NCBI GenBank assembly: GCA_038064635.1
Contig: JBBTSS010000001.1
Coordinates: 1 to 62,497, forward strand
DNA length: 62,497 nucleotides
Direction of reading: 5' to 3'
From: Patescibacteria group bacterium
GTDB lineage: Bacteria > Patescibacteriota > Minisyncoccia > Phycocordibacterales > UBA9973
Shown: positions 40,215-50,050 of the stretch, one piece after another
Layout: the number at the start of each line of letters is the position of its first letter
How positions within the stretch are numbered: position 1 is the stretch's first letter
Position numbers and translations under genes: made by a program
The notes under the pieces: generated by a model
Told to the model about the DNA's origin: nothing
The model's input: the letters and a program-made list of their open reading frames with translations, nothing else
Databases searched by the model: none

Positions 40215-40931
40215 ATGAAAAAAATCATATTTTTTGATACTGAGACCACTGGAAACGAAACAAAAGACTTCCTCTGTCAGATAGCTTACAAAACCGACAA
40301 TGAGACTTTCAACGGTCTTTACAAACCTCCTTTCAAAATCCCACCTGAAGCTTCAGCTGTACACCACATATCAAACAAAATGGTTGAAGACAAACCTACA
40401 TTTAGTGAAAGTCCTGATAGTAAAAAAATAAAAAATCTTTTTGAAGATGCAAATTCTGTCGTCGTTGCTCATAATGCACCTTTTGACCTAATGATTATTA
40501 AAAAAGAAGACATCGTACCAGCGAACTTTATCTGCACCTTACGAGTGGCTCGACAATTAGACACAGAAGAAAAAATAGATAGATACAATCTTCAATACTT
40601 ACGATACCTGCTCGACATCGAAGTAGAAGCTCAAGCCCATGATGCACTAGGCGACGTACTCGTGCTCGAAAAGCTTTTTGAAAGATTAAAGAAAAAGATA
40701 ATAGACACAGACGGAGTGAGCGATGAAGAAGCTATCATTAAAATGATAGAGATATCTTCACACCCTTCTATTTTTACAAAATTAAACTTTGGAAAACATA
40801 AAGGCAAAAGAATTGAAGAAGTACTCCAGGCAGACCGTGGTTGGCTACAATGGCTACTCGACGAAAAAATAAAAAGCGAAGTACCAGACGAAGACTGGAT
40901 ATATACTCTCAAACACTATTTAGGTAAATAA
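40215..40931 (+). CDS. DEDD-type 3'-5' exonuclease (DnaQ/ExoX-like) with C-terminal DUF3820-like domain
   Basis: Exo motifs FFDTETTG, VAHNAPFDL and HDALGDV. The C-terminal part is FGKHKGKRIEEVLQADRGWLQWLL. Confidence 0.8.
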   Translation: MKKIIFFDTETTGNETKDFLCQIAYKTDNETFNGLYKPPFKIPPEASAVHHISNKMVEDKPTFSESPDSKKIKNLFEDANSVVVAHNAPFDLMIIKKEDIVPANFICTLRVARQLDTEEKIDRYNLQYLRYLLDIEVEAQAHDALGDVLVLEKLFERLKKKIIDTDGVSDEEAIIKMIEISSHPSIFTKLNFGKHKGKRIEEVLQADRGWLQWLLDEKIKSEVPDEDWIYTLKHYLGK

Positions 40932-40981
40932 AAAACCGGTCACTTATGTAACCGGGGTGATTAAATAAAACATTTGGTTTT

Positions 40982-41107
40982 TTAATTTTTTTTCTTATCT
41001 TTTAATATGCAAAAAAATGTTAGTCCTGCTGTGCATAACAGCATGAATGGTATTATCAGTCCTTTGTAAGAACTGACGTTTGTTAGATAATCAAAATTCC
41101 AATTCAT
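40982..41107 (-). CDS. possible 41-aa hydrophobic peptide
   Basis: Hand translation gives MNWNFDYLTNVSSYKGLIIPFMLLCTAGLTFFCILKDKKKN. Below the ORF-track cut-off. Confidence 0.2.
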   Translation of the reverse strand: MNWNFDYLTNVSSYKGLIIPFMLLCTAGLTFFCILKDKKKN

Positions 41108-41212
41108 GAGAAAAATTTAAAGGTGAAGGAAAAAAATAATTTAATATAAAAAATTACACTCTTTCGTCATCTTTAAAAATAAAAGAACAAAATAATACAT
41201 ACATATATTAAC

Positions 41213-41270
41213 ACATAATTAAAAAAAGTAAATAAAAAAGCGCGATTGTGTTTGCACACAAAAGCGCTCT
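41213..41270. repeat. copy A of an approximately 55-nt terminator-promoter module
   Basis: CATAATT..AAAAAAAGTAAATAAAAAAGCGCGATTGTGTTTGCACACAAAAGCGCTC. It matches 41564-41621 with 2 substitutions and a 2-nt indel. Confidence 0.85.
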
Positions 41271-41304
41271 AAGTAATGTCTATCAAATATAGTAAATTAA
41301 AGTT

Positions 41305-41514
41305 TTAGCGAACGAGTCGCACCCATTCACCTTCGTTTAGAAGGTTTTGAAGATTCAACGCCTGACGGCTTTGCTCTTTAATAATAGTTCCGTCACTTAG
41401 TTGGATAGAGAAAACTTGAAGACGAGGATTCGTATTCGGGAAAGGCGTAAATACATCTACGACCTTTACCATTCCTGTTTCATCAGTTTCGGCAGATTTA
41501 ATTTCTTTTGCCAT
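41305..41514 (-). CDS. hypothetical protein (69 aa)
   Basis: ORF framed by the shared leader and terminator modules. No domain recognised. Confidence 0.5.
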   Translation of the reverse strand: MAKEIKSAETDETGMVKVVDVFTPFPNTNPRLQVFSIQLSDGTIIKEQSRQALNLQNLLNEGEWVRLVR

Positions 41515-41563
41515 GATGTTGTTAAATTTAAAAATTAAAGAACTTGAGAGGTTTTTACTGTAC

Positions 41564-41621
41564 CATAATTATAAAAAAAGTAAATAAAAAAGCGCGATCG
41601 TGTTTACACACAAAAGCGCTC
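41564..41621. repeat. copy B of the approximately 55-nt terminator-promoter module
   Basis: See copy A. On the minus strand it is a hairpin plus U-run, followed by TTTACT..TGGTACAGT. Confidence 0.85.
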
Positions 41622-41652
41622 CATTTTAACTTACTATTCAAGCAACATTCCC

Positions 41653-41931
41653 CTACTTCTTTTTGGCCTTCTTGCACCAAGTCACCATAAAGTCATTAGG
41701 CTTTGAAGGCAAAGTGCTCTTCTGTCTGACAACCTTTCGGAACCCCAATCTTCGCAACATACTGGCATAATTGTCTGCCAATATTTCGGTCTTGAAAAAT
41801 TCCCTTTTTTTATTCCAAACGACGATGAATTCACTAGTCGTTTTGTCAAAACTACTCTCGACCCAATAAAGATCAGACATTTCGTGATAGAACTTGTCAG
41901 CCTCTTGGGCACTTTTAAAATTTCGTTTCAT
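41653..41931 (-). CDS. hypothetical protein (92 aa)
   Basis: ORF 27 nt downstream of the preceding ORF. Preferred over alternate-frame ORF 41682..41912. No domain recognised. Confidence 0.5.
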   Translation of the reverse strand: MKRNFKSAQEADKFYHEMSDLYWVESSFDKTTSEFIVVWNKKREFFKTEILADNYASMLRRLGFRKVVRQKSTLPSKPNDFMVTWCKKAKKK

Positions 41932-41958
41932 AATTTGAAAATTTAAAGGGTTTTAAAA

Positions 41959-42201
41959 TCAAGATTTTATCTTCAGATGACCTTTATAGTTTTCAAGAGG
42001 AAAACCGTTGTCAGCATTCCAATAATAGCGCCCAGAGTTTCGGTGACCCCGGAAAGTAGTAAGTAGCGTTTTTTCGGAAAATTCACTCTGAACTACAAAG
42101 TTCACCCAATCTTCGGGCGTATTTATTGTAGTCACTTGATTCTCATTTCGTTTGTTTTTCCAGTAAAGGCGAATGGGTAAAAATGGTTTCTTCTTTTCCA
42201 T
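41959..42201 (-). CDS. hypothetical protein (80 aa)
   Basis: ORF with a promoter-leader homologous to that of 41305..41514. Confidence 0.5.
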   Translation of the reverse strand: MEKKKPFLPIRLYWKNKRNENQVTTINTPEDWVNFVVQSEFSEKTLLTTFRGHRNSGRYYWNADNGFPLENYKGHLKIKS

Positions 42202-42314
42202 CTTGTTTAATTTTTAAAAAGTTAAAAGAACTTGTGAATAAAAACACTATACCATATATTATAGATTTGTAAATATTTATATCCTAAGGCTTTTATCATG
42301 ATATAATTTAATTT

Positions 42315-43376
42315 ATGGAAATAATCATAATGATTCTGATTTTTATATTGATACTAAGTGGCATCGCTGCTCTATTTACTTATCACTATTTTAAAAATAA
42401 AAAAGACCAAGCACCCAAAGACGATATAGGGCTCAATCTTATCCTCACTCAATTAAATGAACTCTCTCGTACAGTAGATGCAAAGCTCGGTGAAAGTCAC
42501 AAACAAGTAAACGAAAGCCTCAAATTTCATTCAAGCGAATCAAACAGAATTATTCAAGACGTCACGGAAAAGCTAACTCGTCTCGACGAGACAAACAAAC
42601 AAGTCATATCTTTTGCAGACCAGCTCCAGAGCTTAGAAAATATTTTAAAAAATCCGAAGCAACGTGGGATTCTTGGTGAATATTATTTAGAAACAGTTTT
42701 AAAGAATGTCCTCCCTCCTGGAAGCTACCAGATGCAATACCCTTTTCCTGATGGCACTATTGTAGATGCTGTGGTATTCGTCAAAGACAAGATCATTCCC
42801 ATAGACTCCAAATTCTCTCTCGAGAATTACAACAAAATGATAGAAATATCAGACCCGACTGAAAAGAAAAGGCTCGAGACAATATTTGTAAATGATTTAA
42901 AAAATAGAATCGTAGAGACTTCAAAATACGTACAACCTGCTCAAGGTACGACAGATTTTGCTTTCATGTTCATACCCCATGAAGCTATCTATTATGATTT
43001 GATAACAAATAAAATAGGTGGACTCAAAGATGAAGAAAATGAAAACCTTATCCAAAGAGCAAGTGGTAAATACAAAGTCATAATCACTTCCCCTACTTCA
43101 TTCCTCGCATATCTTCAGACAGTCCTCCAGGGACTAAAAGCGCTTCAAATAGAAGAGTCAGCAAAAGAGATCATCAAAAGAGTCGAGGAACTCGGTAAGC
43201 ATTTAAAGAGTTACGATGAATACCACAACAAACTCGGAACTTCCCTTTCTACTGTGGTCAACCATTACAATTCTTCAAACAAAGAACTTAAAAAAATAGA
43301 CAAGGACGTCTTACGCATAGCCGGATCTTCACCTGAACTCAATCTCCTTGAAATCACAAAGCCTGAATTGGAATAA
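42315..43376 (+). CDS. rmuC: DNA recombination protein RmuC
   Basis: N-terminal TM helix, a coiled coil, and an RmuC nuclease-like core (FAFMFIPHEAIYYDL). TGaTATAAT lies 7 nt upstream of the ATG. Confidence 0.85.
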   Translation: MEIIIMILIFILILSGIAALFTYHYFKNKKDQAPKDDIGLNLILTQLNELSRTVDAKLGESHKQVNESLKFHSSESNRIIQDVTEKLTRLDETNKQVISFADQLQSLENILKNPKQRGILGEYYLETVLKNVLPPGSYQMQYPFPDGTIVDAVVFVKDKIIPIDSKFSLENYNKMIEISDPTEKKRLETIFVNDLKNRIVETSKYVQPAQGTTDFAFMFIPHEAIYYDLITNKIGGLKDEENENLIQRASGKYKVIITSPTSFLAYLQTVLQGLKALQIEESAKEIIKRVEELGKHLKSYDEYHNKLGTSLSTVVNHYNSSNKELKKIDKDVLRIAGSSPELNLLEITKPELE

Positions 43377-43378
43377 AA

Positions 43379-43413
43379 AAAGCCTTGTTTACTCAACGAG
43401 TAAACAAGGCTTT
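43379..43413. terminator. bidirectional terminator
   Basis: AAAGCCTTGTTTACTC pairs with GAGTAAACAAGGCTTT. Confidence 0.75.
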
Positions 43414-43429
43414 CATGTTCAATAAAAGA

Positions 43430-44200
43430 CTAACGTAAAACAATCTGACGCACCCACTCTTCTGTACACGCATTTTCTACTACTTTTCCAGCGGTTTCTT
43501 TGTCCCCAATTTTCTTAATGAGTCTATTCAATTGTGGTCCGATCTTTTTGTCACAGTCGCATTCAGAAGTTACCGATTGAAACTCTGGATGAACCAACAT
43601 AAACAAGTCGGAAGTTTTTTTAGAAGCCATTAACTCGCGATTAAATCGTGCATTATCTTTCAAAAACTTTGACATTGAATTTTGTAACGAGATTGGTGCT
43701 GGAAAGTATTTCTCTTTTTCAATAGATACATGGTACTGATACACATGTATTAGTTCATGATAAATCCTAAACACCGTTTCTTCAATTGTGCCTTTTGACA
43801 AATCACTTACATTGGCAAATACATGCTTCCTGCCTCCAGATAAATCTGGATTATACATCATAGATGCGTGAGCCCCAGCAGTATTTTGCATGAGAGATTC
43901 TGGCACCTCTAAAATCAGAACTTCATCCTCTGGATTTGTTCCTTTACCATAAGTAAAAGTGTATGAGTCCCCATTTCGAATATATTTTGTAATACTTCCG
44001 ATTTTTACTTTTTGAAGCCAGGCATAGACCTTATTTTTTATATCTTGATCTGGCTCGAGTTCCATGAGCTCTTTAAGCTTAGATACAGCAGATTCTAATT
44101 TTTCTTTATTTGGTATTTTTTCTGGGGTGGTACTCCTTTTTGGAATCTCAGGAGAACACGCAAAAAGCGACAGGACTAGCAAAGTGAGCAGCGTTTTCAT
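43430..44200 (-). CDS. putative lipoprotein with HExxH motif (HELIHVYQY)
   Basis: Signal peptide with lipobox LFAC. Carries the HExxH motif and is a paralogue of 44364..45092. Confidence 0.6.
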   Translation of the reverse strand: MKTLLTLLVLSLFACSPEIPKRSTTPEKIPNKEKLESAVSKLKELMELEPDQDIKNKVYAWLQKVKIGSITKYIRNGDSYTFTYGKGTNPEDEVLILEVPESLMQNTAGAHASMMYNPDLSGGRKHVFANVSDLSKGTIEETVFRIYHELIHVYQYHVSIEKEKYFPAPISLQNSMSKFLKDNARFNRELMASKKTSDLFMLVHPEFQSVTSECDCDKKIGPQLNRLIKKIGDKETAGKVVENACTEEWVRQIVLR

Positions 44201-44363
44201 AAAAAAAATATTTTATTTTAAAAGAAATAAGAAAGAAGTTCTTGCCACGCATGGCAACATAATCTTATTGCGATTAAGATAACACAAATATCTTAATTTG
44301 TCAAAAATAAAAATACCCCGGTGCATTCATAGCGACCGGGGCATACTTCTTGCATATTAACCT

Positions 44364-45092
44364 TTAATATCCTTGTCTTTCGATAAAAAAATCTGGGCAA
44401 GACAATACAACGATATAATCGATAATATAATCAGGTATCGTATTGGTCAGATTAAAGATTTGCATCAGGGGTTTTTGACAATCAATATTCCCAATATACT
44501 TTTCGTATTCAGGGTGTAGACCCATGAACAATCTGGCTTCAAATTGCCAGGCCTGTACTTCTCTTTTTCTCTTTGCAATTTTTAGTTGCTCTCCTTGTAA
44601 AAAGAAATCCTGTGGGTTCAATCTGAATTGGTATATGTGCACCAATTCATGCCCTGCACTTACTGCTATCCGCTCTACTGATCTTTCTTTAACAGCTGAG
44701 TACTTTGCGTATATATACCGTTTGTCAGGAAAAATGCGCGGCATCGCGAAAAATGCAGCCTCTTGCTTTACACTATTGACGCAAGAATCTGGTAAAACAA
44801 TAATTTTTGTAGAGTTGTCATGAACATGCATGACATTCATGCCTCCCTCTGACTTTACAAGAAGTCCTGTGCCAACAGAAAAAGTTTTAGTCCAAAGTTT
44901 AAGCGAATCTAGCATAGCACTATCTTTTTTTTCTTTATAGAGAGGAAGTAAAATGTCACTCAGAAAAATTATAGCTTTTGCTATTTTAATACTATCTGTT
45001 CTATACATAGGGGGCAAAACAACTTTTTGAGTTTGAGATTGTCCTAGTAATGGAAGAAAAAATAGAAAACCGAAGGCAAATAGGTTTTTCAT
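44364..45092 (-). CDS. secreted protein with HExxH motif (HELVHIYQF)
   Basis: Signal peptide. Shared blocks with 43430..44200: HELxHxYQ and LFMxxHPE(F/Y), plus a single conserved Cys downstream. Confidence 0.6.
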   Translation of the reverse strand: MKNLFAFGFLFFLPLLGQSQTQKVVLPPMYRTDSIKIAKAIIFLSDILLPLYKEKKDSAMLDSLKLWTKTFSVGTGLLVKSEGGMNVMHVHDNSTKIIVLPDSCVNSVKQEAAFFAMPRIFPDKRYIYAKYSAVKERSVERIAVSAGHELVHIYQFRLNPQDFFLQGEQLKIAKRKREVQAWQFEARLFMGLHPEYEKYIGNIDCQKPLMQIFNLTNTIPDYIIDYIVVLSCPDFFIERQGY

Positions 45093-45261
45093 GTTGCAAT
45101 GTTTTTGATATTGTAAAAAACAAAAAAAATAGGTTCTTTACCACCACGTAACCAAAGGTCGCCGTAATACGTAATAAAGTTTACCTAATCTATTTTTACT
45201 TTAACCCGATTTTACCATTTTGTCAAAAATAAAAAGGGTCTGTTTAGACCCTTTAAAGATT

Positions 45262-45468
45262 TTATTTTTGTTTTTGTTTTTGTTTTTGAAATTGAAGTTT
45301 TTTACGCTTCAGTTTTTGAGCTAACTCTTTCACACTTGGGGAAGTTTCTTTTTTAGATTTCCTTTTAGGTGGAAAAGTAACATTCTCTTCGAAGAATGAA
45401 AAGACTTTACGTTCGTGATCTTTCACTGAAATTGAAAAACCATTCTCATCTTTTTCTTTTTGTTCCAT
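45262..45468 (-). CDS. hypothetical Lys-rich protein ending in a (QK)n repeat
   Basis: ORF with its own leader and terminator. The 3' end is encoded by a CAAAAA hexamer repeat (45265-45290 on the plus strand as TTTTTG). Confidence 0.45.
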   Translation of the reverse strand: MEQKEKDENGFSISVKDHERKVFSFFEENVTFPPKRKSKKETSPSVKELAQKLKRKKLQFQKQKQKQK

Positions 45469-45786
45469 TTTTATTCTTTTTTGAAAGAACTCCAGTCTCT
45501 TATAAAACTTCGTGTTTTATACTCTGGCTTTTAGCTGTAAATTTTTACAAATAAAAGTCAGGACACAAAACAAAAGCGCTCTCATCCGAGAGCGCTTTTT
45601 ATTGATAGATGTATTTTACTTTATATCTAGCAACAAAAAAGAACACTCTCTGTGGAGCGCTTCTTTCCCTTATTTGCTACTAATACAAAATTCTTATTCA
45701 TAATATTATTTATATCATATATCCATTCACCTAAATAGTCAAAAAAATTGGCCACCTTTTACGATGACCAACTTACTAAGAGATTA

Positions 45787-46182
45787 TTATTTTTTCTTAA
45801 GGTACAAACGGTAGTCTGGATCAAGCCAGACATCATTAACGTAAAATATTACTTGATAGAAATTGGAGTCCCCAAATAAAGTATTCAATGCATGCAGTAA
45901 TTTATTTTTTTTATGGGAATTATGTGTCCCTTTTTTTATTACTTGTGTTGCATTTACATTTTTTTTAGGTCTACAAACAACTTCGTAATTTGAAAATTCT
46001 TTAGGTTTTAGATAATTAAATCTAGCACTAATTTGATAGGGATTCATGTTCCCAACAAGAACATGCCATGCCTCGTGTTTCCTTGGCGACACGTGAGAGA
46101 TATTTGCAGGATTAGTTTTATGACCACCAAGCGACGTCGGGCATCTATGGTGTTCTTCGGTGATTATCTTAGACTTCATCAT
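45787..46182 (-). CDS. HNH endonuclease-domain protein
   Basis: EEHHRCPTSLGGHKTNPANISHVSPRKHEAWHVLVGN fits the HH..P.S.GG...N......H.AWH..(F/V)GN HNH pattern. Confidence 0.7.
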   Translation of the reverse strand: MMKSKIITEEHHRCPTSLGGHKTNPANISHVSPRKHEAWHVLVGNMNPYQISARFNYLKPKEFSNYEVVCRPKKNVNATQVIKKGTHNSHKKNKLLHALNTLFGDSNFYQVIFYVNDVWLDPDYRLYLKKK

Positions 46183-46239
46183 GCCCTTTTTATTTAAAAA
46201 GTGAAAGAATTGTTATTTCAATTTATACTAACACATACA

Positions 46240-46276
46240 GCAAAATAGCTCAAAATTTGATTTTGAGCTATTTTGA
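46240..46276 (-). terminator. intrinsic terminator after tRNA-Glu
   Basis: AAAATAGCTCAAAAT pairs with ATTTTGAGCTATTTT. Confidence 0.65.
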
Positions 46277-46281
46277 TCGTG

Positions 46282-46353
46282 TGACTCTACAGGGAATCGA
46301 ACCCTGATTTGATCCTTGAGAAGGATCCGTCCTAACCGTTAGACGATAGAGCC
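46282..46353 (-). tRNA. tRNA-Glu (anticodon CUC)
   Basis: Hand-folded: acceptor GGCTCTA/TAGAGTC, D arm GTCT-AACGGTTA-GGAC, anticodon stem GATCC/GGATC with loop TTCTCAA, T arm CAGGG-TTCGATT-CCCTG, discriminator A. Confidence 0.9.
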
Positions 46354-46589
46354 GTTATTTTCTTTTTTAACTCACTTTTACCTTTTGGCGTTTTATAATA
46401 TCTCTCAACCCTAAAAGCTTCATAAATATTATCATAATCTTCTTTATATATCAGTTTTAAAGGTCGACGACTTTTTGTTGACTTTACTTTACCTTTATTG
46501 TGATAACCTAGTCTCTTGTTTATATCTGAAGTGCAACCTATATAAAGGTTATTATCTATTGAACTTTGCAATACATAAACTGTATGCAT
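46332..46589 (-). CDS. GIY-YIG (URI-domain, COG2827-like) nuclease
   Basis: VYVLQSSIDNNLYIGCTSDINKRLGYHN...RRPLKLIY...EAFRVERYYK fits the GIY-YIG core. The last 7 codons and the TAG stop lie inside the tRNA-Glu gene. Confidence 0.8.
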   Translation of the reverse strand: MHTVYVLQSSIDNNLYIGCTSDINKRLGYHNKGKVKSTKSRRPLKLIYKEDYDNIYEAFRVERYYKTPKGKSELKKKITALSSNG

Positions 46590-46598
46590 ATTAATTTA

Positions 46599-46649
46599 GT
46601 CCTAACCGTTAGCCTCGCCCATAGGCTACGGCCGAGGGACGATAGAGCC
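46599..46649 (-). pseudogene. tRNA-Glu 5' fragment (positions 1-25) interrupted by a 26-nt GC-rich hairpin
   Basis: GGCTCTATCGTC [CCTCGGCCGTAGCCTATGGGCGAGGC] TAACGGTTAGGAC. Confidence 0.75.
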
Positions 46650-46657
46650 ATGAGAAA

Positions 46658-46686
46658 ATACTAACAATATATGAACTTTTTTGCAA
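46658..46686 (-). promoter_or_regulatory. candidate sigma-70 promoter in front of the tRNA-Glu fragment
   Basis: On the minus strand, TTGCAA (46681-46686), a 17-nt spacer, then TAGTAT (46658-46663). This lies 8 nt upstream of the fragment's first G. Confidence 0.45.
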
Positions 46687-46774
46687 AATAAAAAAGCTCA
46701 GGCCTATGCAAAAATGCACATTCCTGAGCGATACTGTCTAGTCCCCCCAGATTAAGACAGTGAATGAATGATTT

Positions 46775-47311
46775 TTACCTCAACACGGTTTTGCTGTTGC
46801 CGTCTGAATCAGTCACAACCATATTACTTTCCCCTTTCACGAATTTAATTGATCTCGGGAATGAATATAATTTGTCTGACACATCAGCAATTGGTTTTCC
46901 ATCATAACGTATGACACACCAAGGGCCGTCCAAAGCCATTTTGTAAGCAATACAAGGTAACTTTTTTCCACCCTCTAAAAGAAAAGTTCTCTCTACGTTA
47001 ACTACGTTCTGCACCAATTGTTGAACGGAATCATCTTGTATGAGTACAATCTCATAATCGTTTGTATAGCCAAACGCGGCTACCACTTTTTTTGTTGAAT
47101 CCACCATAGCAGATGATCCAAACGGCAGCCACTCGAAGGAATAAAGAATCGAGTCTCCGCTTTCCATCTCTTGTGGGTAAAAGATAAGCCTTTCTTCCAA
47201 AAGGATCTTATTATCAGAAGAGACAATACGAGGATCCTTGACTCCAACGCAAGATATGGCAGCCATCAAGACAAAAAGAATGAAGAAAATACGAAATTTG
47301 TTTGACAACAT
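46775..47311 (-). CDS. putative lipoprotein, function unknown
   Basis: Signal peptide with lipobox AAISC. No domain recognised. Confidence 0.5.
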   Translation of the reverse strand: MLSNKFRIFFILFVLMAAISCVGVKDPRIVSSDNKILLEERLIFYPQEMESGDSILYSFEWLPFGSSAMVDSTKKVVAAFGYTNDYEIVLIQDDSVQQLVQNVVNVERTFLLEGGKKLPCIAYKMALDGPWCVIRYDGKPIADVSDKLYSFPRSIKFVKGESNMVVTDSDGNSKTVLR

Positions 47312-47535
47312 AAGCTGAAAAATTTAAAGTGTTTGAAAAAAATGTAAAGAACAATTGGTTCTTAATCAATTATTTCGCTGGGGCGAAAAGCTGATTAATC
47401 CAAAAGATATATTAACACAAAAAAATAAAAAAGTCCAATAAAAATGCCCTCGAAGCATTTAGGGGGAGCTTCGAGGGCAATCGATTTTTGTCTGATTAAA
47501 CGTGATGATTAAAAAAAATTCAAAGCGGTTAAAGA

Positions 47536-48228
47536 TTAAATTTTTTGAAGGAGTGAAACTCCAACAGTACCGGATTTAGGAAACATCTGAGTATAACCCC
47601 AAAATCCCTGAGCACCGACGCCAACTCCTAATTGCGTTTCATTCCTTTTACCGAAGAAAAAGTTAAAATTTGTCTCACAGCGATTTTCATCGAAAAACAC
47701 ACCTGTCATCAATTTTGGAGCAAGGTATCTTTGGACATTTATAGTCCACCGCCAACCACCAACATAACCAACTTCTCCACTTACAAAACATGTTTTGAAA
47801 TCATTTGTCCAATCAAGTCCTGTCATTGTGCCAAGTGTCATAAAATTAGGAGGAGTCATTTTACCCACAGTTAACATTGGGGAAAAAGTAATCTTCAGAT
47901 GATCAGGTAATTCTACATAAAATCCGCCTTTTAAATAAGTTTCGATAAATTTGTCTCCATCACTTAGAAGCGAAAATTTGGCAAATGGAAGCAACTTACC
48001 TTTTGCACGGTCTTTTTTCAACTTCCATTCAAACGTTGAACCCCACGCAGACTGTCTTTTTAGGGTCAGTTTGTCTCCTTGTGACACATTTTCAAATTTT
48101 TGCATTGTAGTCCGATCAAAAATGCTGAGTAACAATTCTGAATATGGCCCGAAACTATTTGTTTGGGCATTAAGATGGGAAAGCAAAAACAAGAAAAAAA
48201 ACGAAAAAGTTAAACATGTGTTTCTCAT
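47536..48228 (-). CDS. secreted beta-strand-rich protein, function unknown
   Basis: Signal peptide (...LLSHLNA/QT), then alternating hydrophobic/polar stretches and Gly/aromatic-rich segments. Confidence 0.5.
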   Translation of the reverse strand: MRNTCLTFSFFFLFLLSHLNAQTNSFGPYSELLLSIFDRTTMQKFENVSQGDKLTLKRQSAWGSTFEWKLKKDRAKGKLLPFAKFSLLSDGDKFIETYLKGGFYVELPDHLKITFSPMLTVGKMTPPNFMTLGTMTGLDWTNDFKTCFVSGEVGYVGGWRWTINVQRYLAPKLMTGVFFDENRCETNFNFFFGKRNETQLGVGVGAQGFWGYTQMFPKSGTVGVSLLQKI

Positions 48229-48369
48229 AACGTTTTAACGTTTAGAATTGTGAAAAAACAAAAAGTACGTCACGTACTTATATCGAGAAAACCCTACCAT
48301 TTTATTGACATATTGTCAAAGAGATTGATTGATACTAATCAAGTTTTTTAATACGATATACTTAAATCT

Positions 48370-49014
48370 ATGGAAAGTCTTCCTTTAGCGAATATACCTT
48401 TTGAACATCTATCCCCTATTTGGTTTGTTTTGATAGCTATCGTAGCAAATGCATTCCCCCCTGTACCTGAAGAGATATTCCTCTTATATTTTGGCTACCT
48501 TGCAAACATTCGTCCTGATATCATCTCTTTCTGGCAAATAAACCTTTTTCTAATTATGGGCTTTTTACTTATAGACTCGCTTGTGTACCACTTGGCTTTA
48601 CGAGGACACAAAGTAATTCATTTTATACTAAAAAAAATTCTAGATGTAGACCTAGACGAAAAAGAGGAATTCCTAAAAAAGCATGTATACAAGATAATAT
48701 TTATTTCCCGTTTTTTGGTACAACTTCGAGCCCTTGGCCCTATCACTGCTGCGCGAGTACGTCTACCTTTTAAAGACTTTTTAAAAATGGATTTCCTGGC
48801 GTTAGTCGTGTATGTGCCTATCGCTATGGGTATAGGGTATTATTTTGCACACAGCGTAGAAAAAATATTCTCTGGAACAAAAGTCATAAACAATATCATG
48901 TTTTCAGGTCTCATAATCCTATTATCATTAGTAATCTTAAAAAGATTAAGGAAAATATTACTCAGTGAATTCAACGGAGAAACGAATCACATAAAATCAT
49001 TTTTTAAAATGTAA
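48370..49014 (+). CDS. DedA/VTT-domain membrane protein
   Basis: NAFPPVPEEIFLLYFGYL motif and the TM pattern. TATACT lies 7 nt upstream of the ATG. Confidence 0.65.
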   Translation: MESLPLANIPFEHLSPIWFVLIAIVANAFPPVPEEIFLLYFGYLANIRPDIISFWQINLFLIMGFLLIDSLVYHLALRGHKVIHFILKKILDVDLDEKEEFLKKHVYKIIFISRFLVQLRALGPITAARVRLPFKDFLKMDFLALVVYVPIAMGIGYYFAHSVEKIFSGTKVINNIMFSGLIILLSLVILKRLRKILLSEFNGETNHIKSFFKM

Positions 49015-49060: not shown

Positions 49061-50050
49061 ATGGAAAATCTTATAGAAAATTTCAGCGCACACATACAAG
49101 AAGCTATTATAATAGGAGAAAAAGCTACTTTATCTCAAAAAGAGCGCCAATTTAAAAATGTACTTATTACGGGCATGGGAGGCTCTGGTATAGGAGGAGC
49201 GATAGCATCAGAAATAGCCTCTATCGAGTCCCCTATTCCTTTTTCAATCAGTAAAGGATACTCTGTTCCTCAATTTGTAAACACAGAAACTTTAGTCATA
49301 GTATCTTCTTATTCCGGAGGCACAGAAGAGACAATAAGTGCTATGAAAAAAGCTCAAGAAAAAGGCGCGAAGATTGTATGCATTACTTCAGGTGGTGAAA
49401 TAGAAAAAATCGCAAAAGAAAATAATATTGATCACATTATAATTCCAGGTGGTATGCCACCACGCGCAGCCCTTGGGTACTCTCTAGTGCAGATGTTTTT
49501 TATATTTAATTATTTTGGACTTATAAAAGATAGCTTTAAAGATGAATTACTAGCTGGTGTCTCAATGTTAAATACAGAAAAAGAAAACATAAAACAAGAA
49601 GCAAAAAAAATAGCGGAAAAGCTTTATGGTACTCTACCTGTAATATATGCTCCATATGGGTCCGAAGGTGTCGCAGTACGTTTCAAACAACAATTGAATG
49701 AGAATGCAAAGATGCTTTGTTGGTACGGAGTAGTGCCTGAAATGAATCACAATGAACTCGTGGGCTGGGCTGGTGGAAACGAACACATAGCCGTGATTAT
49801 CTTTAGAAATCAGTCAGATTATCTACGTATCAGTAAAAGAATTGATATCTCTAAAGAAGTTATCTCTAAATATACTCCAAATATAACAGAGATATATTCC
49901 AAAGGAAACTCTCTAATAGAAAGAGCACTTTATCATATCCACTTAGGTGATTTTATCTCCCTATACCTTGCAAATATGAAAGAAGTAGACGTAACAGACA
50001 TAAAAGTTATCGAGTATTTAAAGGCTTCTTTGGCAGAAATTAAAGATTAG
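49061..50050 (+). CDS. bifunctional phosphoglucose/phosphomannose isomerase (SIS domain)
   Basis: GMGGSGIGG, SYSGGTEET and a C-terminal PGI/PMI-type region. TATAAT lies 7 nt upstream of the ATG. Confidence 0.85.
   Translation: MENLIENFSAHIQEAIIIGEKATLSQKERQFKNVLITGMGGSGIGGAIASEIASIESPIPFSISKGYSVPQFVNTETLVIVSSYSGGTEETISAMKKAQEKGAKIVCITSGGEIEKIAKENNIDHIIIPGGMPPRAALGYSLVQMFFIFNYFGLIKDSFKDELLAGVSMLNTEKENIKQEAKKIAEKLYGTLPVIYAPYGSEGVAVRFKQQLNENAKMLCWYGVVPEMNHNELVGWAGGNEHIAVIIFRNQSDYLRISKRIDISKEVISKYTPNITEIYSKGNSLIERALYHIHLGDFISLYLANMKEVDVTDIKVIEYLKASLAEIKD

Follow-up and report, generated by a model that had tools for sequence, protein, structure and literature searches.

A probable gene-turnover hotspot around rmuC and tRNA-Glu(CUC) in a groundwater Nomurabacteria chromosome

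Do orphan genes and stand-alone nuclease genes gathered beside a tRNA gene mark the arrival of a mobile element, or the renewal of genes at a fixed place in a chromosome? The question is raised by positions 40932-48369 (about 7.4 kb, hereafter the patch) of a 62,497-nt stretch of DNA, which we refer to as a whole as the window. The patch is a segment of the chromosome of a groundwater member of the Nomurabacteria, within the Candidate Phyla Radiation (CPR). A reading of the sequence alone had suggested horizontally acquired or phage-derived material. We consider it probable that the patch, with contents of three layers, is a hotspot of gene turnover along a conserved chromosomal backbone and not a mobile island. 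CPR/Patescibacteria genomes are tiny and mostly syntenic, and places of turnover therefore show where these episymbionts adapt.

Conserved anchors and variable slots

Synteny was compared across 80 Nomurabacteria loci (1.24 Mb), found with RmuC as the query, limited to one genome per species and fetched with up to 10 kb on each side of rmuC. Best-segment identity of RmuC across these loci is 77-91%. The exonuclease gene exoX lies next to rmuC on its upstream side in 76 of the 80 loci, and the order obg-MYG1-(dedA)-yqeY-exoX-rmuC is kept in 66-76 of them. A tRNA-Glu(CUC) gene follows downstream of rmuC in 61 loci, at a median distance of 589 nt, sharing the strand of rmuC in 51 loci and inverted in the other 10; the copy of the window is 2.9 kb from rmuC and inverted. 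Because rmuC is conserved after exoX (76/80) and the tRNA gene after rmuC (61/80), both belong to the ancestral backbone. The assignment of rmuC to the core genes thus stands (PF02646, 9e-52). The tRNA, which had been taken as a sign of horizontal acquisition, is part of the backbone and is not an integration scar.

Three slots between these anchors turn over, namely exoX/rmuC, rmuC/tRNA-Glu and tRNA-Glu/dedA. The exoX/rmuC gap ranges from -14 to 1938 nt (median 52 nt, 76 loci); it is shorter than 150 nt in 41 of the 76 and at least 1 kb (1-1.9 kb) in 8, with unrelated genes inside, and measures 1383 nt in the window. Within 5 kb downstream of rmuC, 191 of 353 open reading frames (ORFs) are singletons, and synteny past the tRNA varies among lineages. 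The closest relative, locus L001 (about 83% nucleotide identity; core proteins 91-97% identical in amino acids, aa), retains exoX, rmuC, tRNA-Glu(CUC), likewise inverted, dedA (93%) and pgi. None of the slot genes of the window was detected in L001 by sequence search, and nearly all of them are absent from the 80 related loci. The slots of L001 hold a 163-aa membrane protein, a 210-aa ORF, a 228-aa HEPN-like protein and a 161-aa exported protein. Besides the tRNA, which itself fell outside the blastn reporting threshold in this comparison, the only slot DNA that aligns between the window and L001 is a terminator-promoter element (46655-46704 in the window, 12646-12700 in L001; blastn). Conserved flanking anchors with unrelated slot content, the pattern of a hotspot, are thus what L001 displays. 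The earlier description of the stretch as accessory and variable agrees with these absences.

The features of the patch and its flanks are as follows.

40215-40931, plus strand: exoX-like DEDD 3'-5' exonuclease, left anchor and core gene (Pfam RNase_T, 6e-17, and ExoX-like_C)
40932-42314, minus strand: slot A, the exoX/rmuC variable spacer, 1383 nt with 4 small ORFs
40982-41107, minus strand: s41, small ORF of slot A, 41 aa, no family match
41228-41269, minus strand: terminator module, copy 1, 3' of s69
41305-41514, minus strand: s69, small ORF of slot A, 69 aa, no family match
41580-41621, minus strand: terminator module, copy 2, 3' of s92, near-identical to copy 1
41653-41931, minus strand: s92, small ORF of slot A, 92 aa, no family match
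41959-42201, minus strand: s80, small ORF of slot A, 80 aa, no family match
42315-43376, plus strand: rmuC, core gene (PF02646, 9e-52)
43378-43414, no strand assigned: hairpin with a 17-bp stem (inverted repeat I15, 100% complementary) where rmuC and HEx1 converge, likely a bidirectional terminator
43430-44200, minus strand: HEx1, lipoprotein with HELIH and E189 (lipobox LFAC), putative gluzincin-type metallopeptidase
44364-45092, minus strand: HEx2, secreted paralogue of HEx1 with HELVH and a signal peptide
45262-45468, minus strand: QK68, 68 aa, with a C-terminal QKQKQKQK tail, no family match
45787-46182, minus strand: HNH-like protein (a motif-level label), 131 aa, just downstream of tRNA-Glu, with its own promoter-like site
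46281-46353, minus strand: tRNA-Glu(CUC), core gene, inverted relative to rmuC (ARAGORN and Rfam, 61 bits)
46332-46589, minus strand: domain-only GIY-YIG nuclease gene, 85 aa (Pfam GIY-YIG PF01541, 1.8e-14)
46599-46649, minus strand: second copy of tRNA positions 1-25 (46638-46649 and 46599-46611), split by a 26-nt GC-rich hairpin (46612-46637)
46655-46729, minus strand: terminator hairpin of the lipoprotein gene, then the tRNA-Glu promoter (TTGCAA at 46686-46681, 17-nt spacer, TAGTAT at 46663-46658)
46775-47311, minus strand: lipoprotein, 178 aa (lipobox AISC)
47536-48228, minus strand: ORF with signal peptide, 230 aa, ORFan
48370-49014, plus strand: DedA/VTT-family membrane protein, right anchor (PF09335)
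49061-50050: PGI, in the flank beyond DedA/VTT

All listed ORFs and the tRNA were found where the sequence-only reading had placed them. Apart from exoX, rmuC, the GIY-YIG gene and dedA, no ORF of the patch has a convincing match in Pfam, NCBIfam, PHROGs or PADLOC. An assembly chimera was considered as a source of this unusual arrangement. Three independent assemblies from the same aquifer well (Hainich H41) are collinear with positions 42380-48141 at 99.86-99.97% identity; these contigs of the same population have an arrangement identical to that of the window and so exclude a chimera.

We propose that the ancestral order would have run obg-MYG1-(dedA)-yqeY-exoX-rmuC-tRNA-Glu(CUC), continuing in this lineage to dedA-pgi and then murF-pbp, and that the three slots between the anchors would gain, lose and replace genes, probably via recombination between the conserved flanks, local duplication and inversion. 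The first layer of contents would consist of old, fast-evolving residents: an anciently duplicated pair of exported proteins with HExxH and a downstream glutamate, probably small zinc metallopeptidases of the cell envelope, and the lipoprotein. The second would comprise lineage-specific tiny ORFs and the signal-peptide ORFan, some of which may not be genes, presumably expressed from locally duplicated promoter-leader and terminator modules. The third would be the two miniature nuclease genes tied to tRNA-Glu.

Two further observations concern genes of these slots in relatives. The HEPN-like protein of L001 (11823-12509, minus strand, rmuC/tRNA-Glu slot) matches the Cthe_2314-like HEPN family at E 3.7e-5 with 24.2 bits, below the Pfam cut-off of 27.1; the match hints that conflict or toxin-type genes could also cycle through the hotspot. 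Seven relatives (L005, L014, L019, L024, L027, L053 and L054) carry in the exoX/rmuC slot a conserved protein of about 206 aa with the motif WDGRWRVVIFDIKE, which may resemble PaaX or Cas2-like regulators. Such regulators are common in CPR.

Mobile-element signals and tRNA-linked nuclease genes

A prophage or integrative element that had inserted at tRNA-Glu, decayed and lost its integrase would account for the tRNA inside the patch, for two homing-type nuclease genes and for many short ORFans with their own promoters and terminators. We hold this to be highly improbable, since the tRNA occupies its backbone position here in 61 of 80 relatives and a core gene, rmuC, sits in the middle of the patch. 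A repeat search and direct reading both failed to show the tRNA 3' part directly repeated at the ends of the patch; only the first 25 nt of the tRNA (5' part, positions 1-25) are duplicated, and they flank no more than the 0.3-kb GIY cassette. No integrase or transposase family was found among the ORFs of 40.9-48.4 kb with Pfam, NCBIfam and PHROGs (s41 lay outside the NCBIfam and PHROG runs), and PHROGs gave no credible match in the patch beyond nuclease motifs. In blastn searches of 50,697 phage and 72,556 plasmid records nothing matched the 7.4-kb patch, and IMG/VR contains no close relatives of the six proteins searched (HNH-like, HExxH, GIY-YIG, 230-aa, 178-aa and 92-aa). A defence island was likewise considered and rejected: PADLOC reports no defence system in the patch, giving for rmuC a generic match to the RmuC domain and for the GIY-YIG protein a marginal one to PDC-S14 (E 0.0056). 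These results speak against the claim that the patch is phage-derived or a single horizontally acquired island.

Within the patch, visible signs of mobility are confined to the nuclease genes. The GIY-YIG protein belongs to its superfamily (PF01541, E 1.8e-14, 54 bits against a cut-off of 22.6), and because the Pfam domain spans residues 1-71 of its 85 aa, there is no room for a C-terminal DNA-binding domain. Read along the minus strand, the locus consists of the tRNA promoter (TTGCAA-17-TAGTAT), tRNA positions 1-12, a 26-nt GC hairpin, positions 13-25, 9 nt, the GIY-YIG ORF and the intact tRNA. The 3' end of the ORF overlaps tRNA-Glu(CUC) by 22 nt, so that its last 7 codons and stop correspond to tRNA positions 1-24.

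The same site exists in occupied and empty forms. Locus L022 has the same GIY-YIG/tRNA architecture (76% aa identity), and both of its repeat copies carry its own tRNA variant (GGCC vs GGCT). In L001 the site is empty: the promoter DNA (12646) precedes the tRNA 5' end (12626) by 19 nt, and there is no GIY-YIG gene. A more distant GIY-YIG gene (33%) occurs in L008, about 115 nt downstream of tRNA-Glu; at the remaining tRNA-Glu loci no GIY homologue was detectable. The cassette may have inserted in the 5' part of the tRNA gene and brought or created the second copy of positions 1-25, which would leave it behind the tRNA's own promoter, with the HNH-like gene just downstream of the tRNA. Also in L008 (11180-11290), an 11-nt stretch of the tRNA 3' end recurs in inverted orientation (CACCACTTCGC ... 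GCGAAGTGGTG), and the two copies enclose the spacer that precedes the distant GIY-YIG gene.

The second gene was labelled an HNH nuclease by the sequence-only reading, and this label stands at the level of a motif. In its favor are the motif EEHHRxPxSLGG..N..H..WH (EEHHRCPTSLGG..N..H..WH), conserved in three homologues, and weak matches to PHROG 655 and 740 (homing/HNH endonuclease, E 0.002-0.01). Against it, there is no Pfam match even at E 10 and no PDB fold match (AlphaFold2 model with a predicted local distance difference test score, pLDDT, of 72, and below 50 in the motif region). The databases hold two relatives only. Within the 1.24 Mb of loci its single homologue (L070) lies 295 nt from tRNA-Glu; this gene and all GIY homologues (L022, L008) are thus at most 300 nt from tRNA-Glu, a distribution consistent with putative homing by the two nucleases.

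A bolder extension, which we put forward tentatively and regard as doubtful, is that the single tRNA-Glu(CUC) gene of the Nomurabacteria could be a dedicated landing site for miniature, domain-only selfish nuclease cassettes, whose activity would drive the hypervariability of the slots, and that the exported HExxH proteins could form a new peptidase family specific to Paceibacteria. The GIY-YIG cassette would insert at tRNA position 25, regenerate the 5' part of the tRNA and borrow its stop codon and promoter. The HNH-like gene would home to the 3' flank of the tRNA, and nuclease activity would drive recombination and inversion of the slots.

Exported proteins, small ORFs and composition

The two HExxH proteins had been called paralogous, and this proved correct: pairwise, they share 25% identity over 130 aa (E 2e-13). 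HEx1 finds itself alone among 5.8 billion proteins in a word-indexed search. A profile of HEx1 and HEx2, run with full HMMER against 1.84 billion representative proteins, recovers 3 further members, which makes a family of 5; the only named relative is a cluster (P0004) annotated as Candidatus Paceibacterota. All members are small (242-270 aa) and have a signal peptide or lipobox, and H148, E149, H152, Q155, E189, A192, C216 and C245 are invariant in 5 of 5. In the HEx1 model (pLDDT 60) the HExxH motif and E189 both fall in predicted helices. Neither Pfam nor NCBIfam matches HEx1, PDB sequences give no match (the family profile included), and the predicted structure has no significant PDB fold match (best Foldseek E 0.16). 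Judged by the motif, these proteins are probably small exported gluzincin-like zinc peptidases.

The closest partners are HEx1 with P0004 and HEx2 with P0006, at 34-35% each (HEx2-P0006 34%), against 22% between HEx1 and HEx2. Since each has a closer relative elsewhere than the other, their tandem duplication is ancient. A match to a 3993-aa protein with Ig repeats in the search of representative proteins was discarded as spurious, its 12 short stretches all falling on one segment of the query. The '...AQ' style of the signal peptides of HEx2 and the 230-aa ORF prompted the idea of a Bacteroidota origin, which is unsupported, the sole named relative being of Paceibacterota.

A metagenome scan with the HExxH family uncovered two contigs of one Paceibacterota genome (L085/L086). 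Joined and oriented as the window, they read exoX - rmuC (51%) - pilus genes - HExxH (35%) - K channel - tRNA-Glu(CUC) - NUDIX - lipoprotein - dedA (69%) - cupin - murF (64%) - pbp (76%). The HExxH protein beside tRNA-Glu in this genome is the closest to HEx1 (35% identical), and the 178-aa lipoprotein has a homologue adjacent to dedA, with 28% identity over 57 aa and E-values of 2e-9 in pairwise comparison and 3e-6 in a search of 6292 locus ORFs. A relation of the lipoprotein to the gene in the equivalent slot of L001 was also considered, and none is detectable. Because homologues occupy the same positions in L085/L086, we read the HExxH pair and the lipoprotein as long-standing, fast-evolving residents, and the view of them as recent imports does not agree with the shared order HExxH ... 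tRNA-Glu ... lipoprotein-dedA. Conserved order in distant relatives had been named beforehand as the pattern that speaks against acquisition; it is found for the backbone and for three of the 'orphans' but not for the other genes.

Several points weigh against long residence at a hotspot. Homologues of the HExxH proteins and the lipoprotein were not found around rmuC (up to 10 kb per side) in any of the 80 closer Nomurabacteria, and because of this absence vertical descent needs many losses or relocations; a transfer of the HExxH/lipoprotein block between lineages would be equally compatible. How distant L085/L086 is from the window is ambiguous, with rmuC at 51% but murF at 64% and pbp at 76%. 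The patch also has the most deviant tetranucleotide signature of the window and atypical codon use and third-position GC content (GC3), as foreign DNA would show. For the HExxH genes and the lipoprotein, repeated loss, relocation and old transfer among Paceibacteria are all possible. In L085/L086 murF and pbp are as close to those of the window as are the copies of loci whose RmuC is 86% identical, although its own RmuC reaches 51%; this RmuC may have either evolved unevenly or been replaced.

The same facts could be read as a replacement island, in which the slot contents, including the HExxH and lipoprotein genes, would have been imported from other Paceibacterota by homologous recombination in the flanks, with no mobile element. 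The sharp boundaries of the slots against L001, with conserved promoter and terminator DNA at their edges, fit such an import, as do the genes missing near rmuC in 80 closer relatives yet present in L085/L086, and the deviant tetranucleotide and codon use. We nevertheless consider it unlikely. Identities to the L085/L086 proteins are low (35% and 28%) compared with 64-76% for flanking genes, from which it follows that any such transfer would have been ancient; HEx1 and HEx2 are only distantly related to each other, and no donor was found.

Composition does not mark the patch as foreign DNA. The tetranucleotide distance of the patch is 15.4 against 10.7 +/- 1.5, the highest of 56 sliding windows (z about 3), and its codon usage is mildly atypical, with a distance in relative synonymous codon usage of z about 1.8 and GC3 of 0.32 vs 0.25. 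GC content is flat along the AT-rich window (0.29-0.41). With a value of 0.75 against 0.92 in the remainder of the window, the patch has the lowest coding density among all sliding windows, and its genes have a median length of 112 aa vs 215 aa elsewhere. The foreign-DNA reading is weakened because coding density is low and the core gene rmuC has a raised GC3 too (0.355); the raised GC3 thus reflects the region or gene expression and not a foreign origin. With GC flat and the tetranucleotide deviation coinciding with low coding density, we rejected composition as a diagnostic of horizontal transfer.

The expression signals of the patch do differ from those of the rest of the window, as had been noted. 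It contains 19 terminator-like hairpins against 5.6 +/- 2.9 in shuffled sequences, and in 10 of 11 patch genes the spacer on the upstream side measures 45 nt or more, vs 41% of genes elsewhere. By consensus scan only, the best -10 match lies 42-75 nt 5' of the start codon in 6 of the 10 leadered genes, three others have weak matches and the lipoprotein gene has one at 9 nt; several core genes have their best match 6-12 nt before the start.

Slot A is built of locally duplicated regulatory modules around unrelated tiny ORFs. A 50-nt direct repeat holding the terminator (41220-41269 and 41572-41621; 96% identity, 352-nt spacing) occurs in exactly two copies in the window, both in slot A, where none is expected by chance. 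The promoter-leaders of s80 and s69 can be aligned by eye (TATGGTAYAGT ... CAAGTTCTTT ...). No homologues of s41, s69, s92, s80 or QK68 were found in the loci, QK68 matches no family in Pfam, NCBIfam or PHROGs, and s92, the only one of the four slot A ORFs put to the viral scan, had no match in IMG/VR. The 230-aa signal-peptide ORF is a true ORFan: among 5.8 billion proteins it matches only itself, with no match in Pfam, NCBIfam, PHROGs or PADLOC. Its public copy was called as 189 aa, with a start 41 codons later that loses the signal peptide.

These small ORFs raise the thought that the patch is largely non-functional spacer, with s41, s92, s80 and perhaps QK68 not being genes and the DNA decaying around leftover promoters and terminators. 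In-frame coding scores near zero (s41 -0.06, s92 -0.05, s80 0.06, against 0.41 +/- 0.10 for core genes), the lack of homologues of the small ORFs wherever tested and the low coding density are in keeping with this. Each ORF of the patch, though, scores higher in its own frame than in the five alternatives; conserved homologues exist for the HExxH, HNH-like and GIY-YIG genes and for that of the lipoprotein; and the region is 99.9% conserved in three further assemblies, albeit of the same population. We give this view of the patch as a whole only a slim chance, and retain turnover at a hotspot.

Two features of the spacers stand apart. The 318-nt spacer between the HNH-like gene and QK68 contains a candidate small RNA of about 140 nt (45566-45712, minus strand), with a promoter-like TTGACT-17-TATGAT at 45742-45714 and two strong hairpins, the second being a terminator with a U-run. 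Its minimum free energy is -44.8 kcal/mol vs -25.5 +/- 3.3 in shuffled sequences (z -5.9), and Rfam gave sub-threshold matches only. At 48263-48279 (minus strand), 5' of the start of the 230-aa ORF in the divergent spacer that it has in common with dedA, a short hairpin with a T-run is positioned as a terminator for no gene.

Significance and comparison with known systems

A tRNA, nucleases and ORFans together do not make a phage island, and a test of the backbone against relatives sorts core genes from old, fast-evolving genes and from truly new ones. The variable genes of the patch encode mainly envelope or exported proteins, which makes them candidates for host contact. The very rare HExxH family could be tested as a protease, and the GIY-YIG locus offers a clean natural comparison between a tRNA gene that carries a minimal cassette and the same site without one.

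Gluzincins are zinc metallopeptidases that include thermolysin-like, M48 and minigluzincin groups, with HExxH and a downstream glutamate ligand. The HExxH family resembles them in an invariant HExxH and an invariant glutamate 41 residues on, a putative ligand in a predicted helix; its proteins are exported and have two invariant cysteines. It differs from gluzincins in having no Pfam, PDB-sequence or fold match and only 5 known members, all small.

Phage T4 SegB is a free-standing GIY-YIG homing endonuclease in a tRNA gene cluster (PMC2330249). The GIY-YIG gene of the window is similarly placed directly beside a tRNA gene and is present or absent among relatives at the same site. Unlike SegB, its product of 85 aa consists of the catalytic domain and lacks a DNA-binding domain, and the gene is chromosomal in a CPR bacterium; its ORF ends within the tRNA, and a duplicated 5' part of the tRNA flanks the gene. 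With islands and prophages that target tRNA genes the patch has in common a tRNA gene in a variable region, but it contains neither an integrase nor a repeat of the tRNA 3' end, and the tRNA stands at its ancestral place.

Flexible islands and hotspots of streamlined free-living bacteria, including Prochlorococcus, Alteromonas and HIMB59, are of an additive or a replacement type and occupy fixed chromosomal sites, often beside tRNA genes (PMC5804319, PMC4781885, PMC10734472), and ORFans are enriched in genomic islands (PMC1285063). Like these, the patch sits at a fixed site between anchors and beside a tRNA, its content is unrelated between close relatives, it has no integrase, and it is rich in ORFans and in envelope or exported proteins. 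It differs in being very small (7.4 kb) and split into three sub-slots by core genes, and in content that is partly old and positionally conserved; its variability is seen here between species. The patch is a flexible hotspot of an ordinary kind in which some families are new; it documents, for a CPR lineage, a very rare family of exported HExxH proteins and mini-nuclease cassettes linked to the tRNA.

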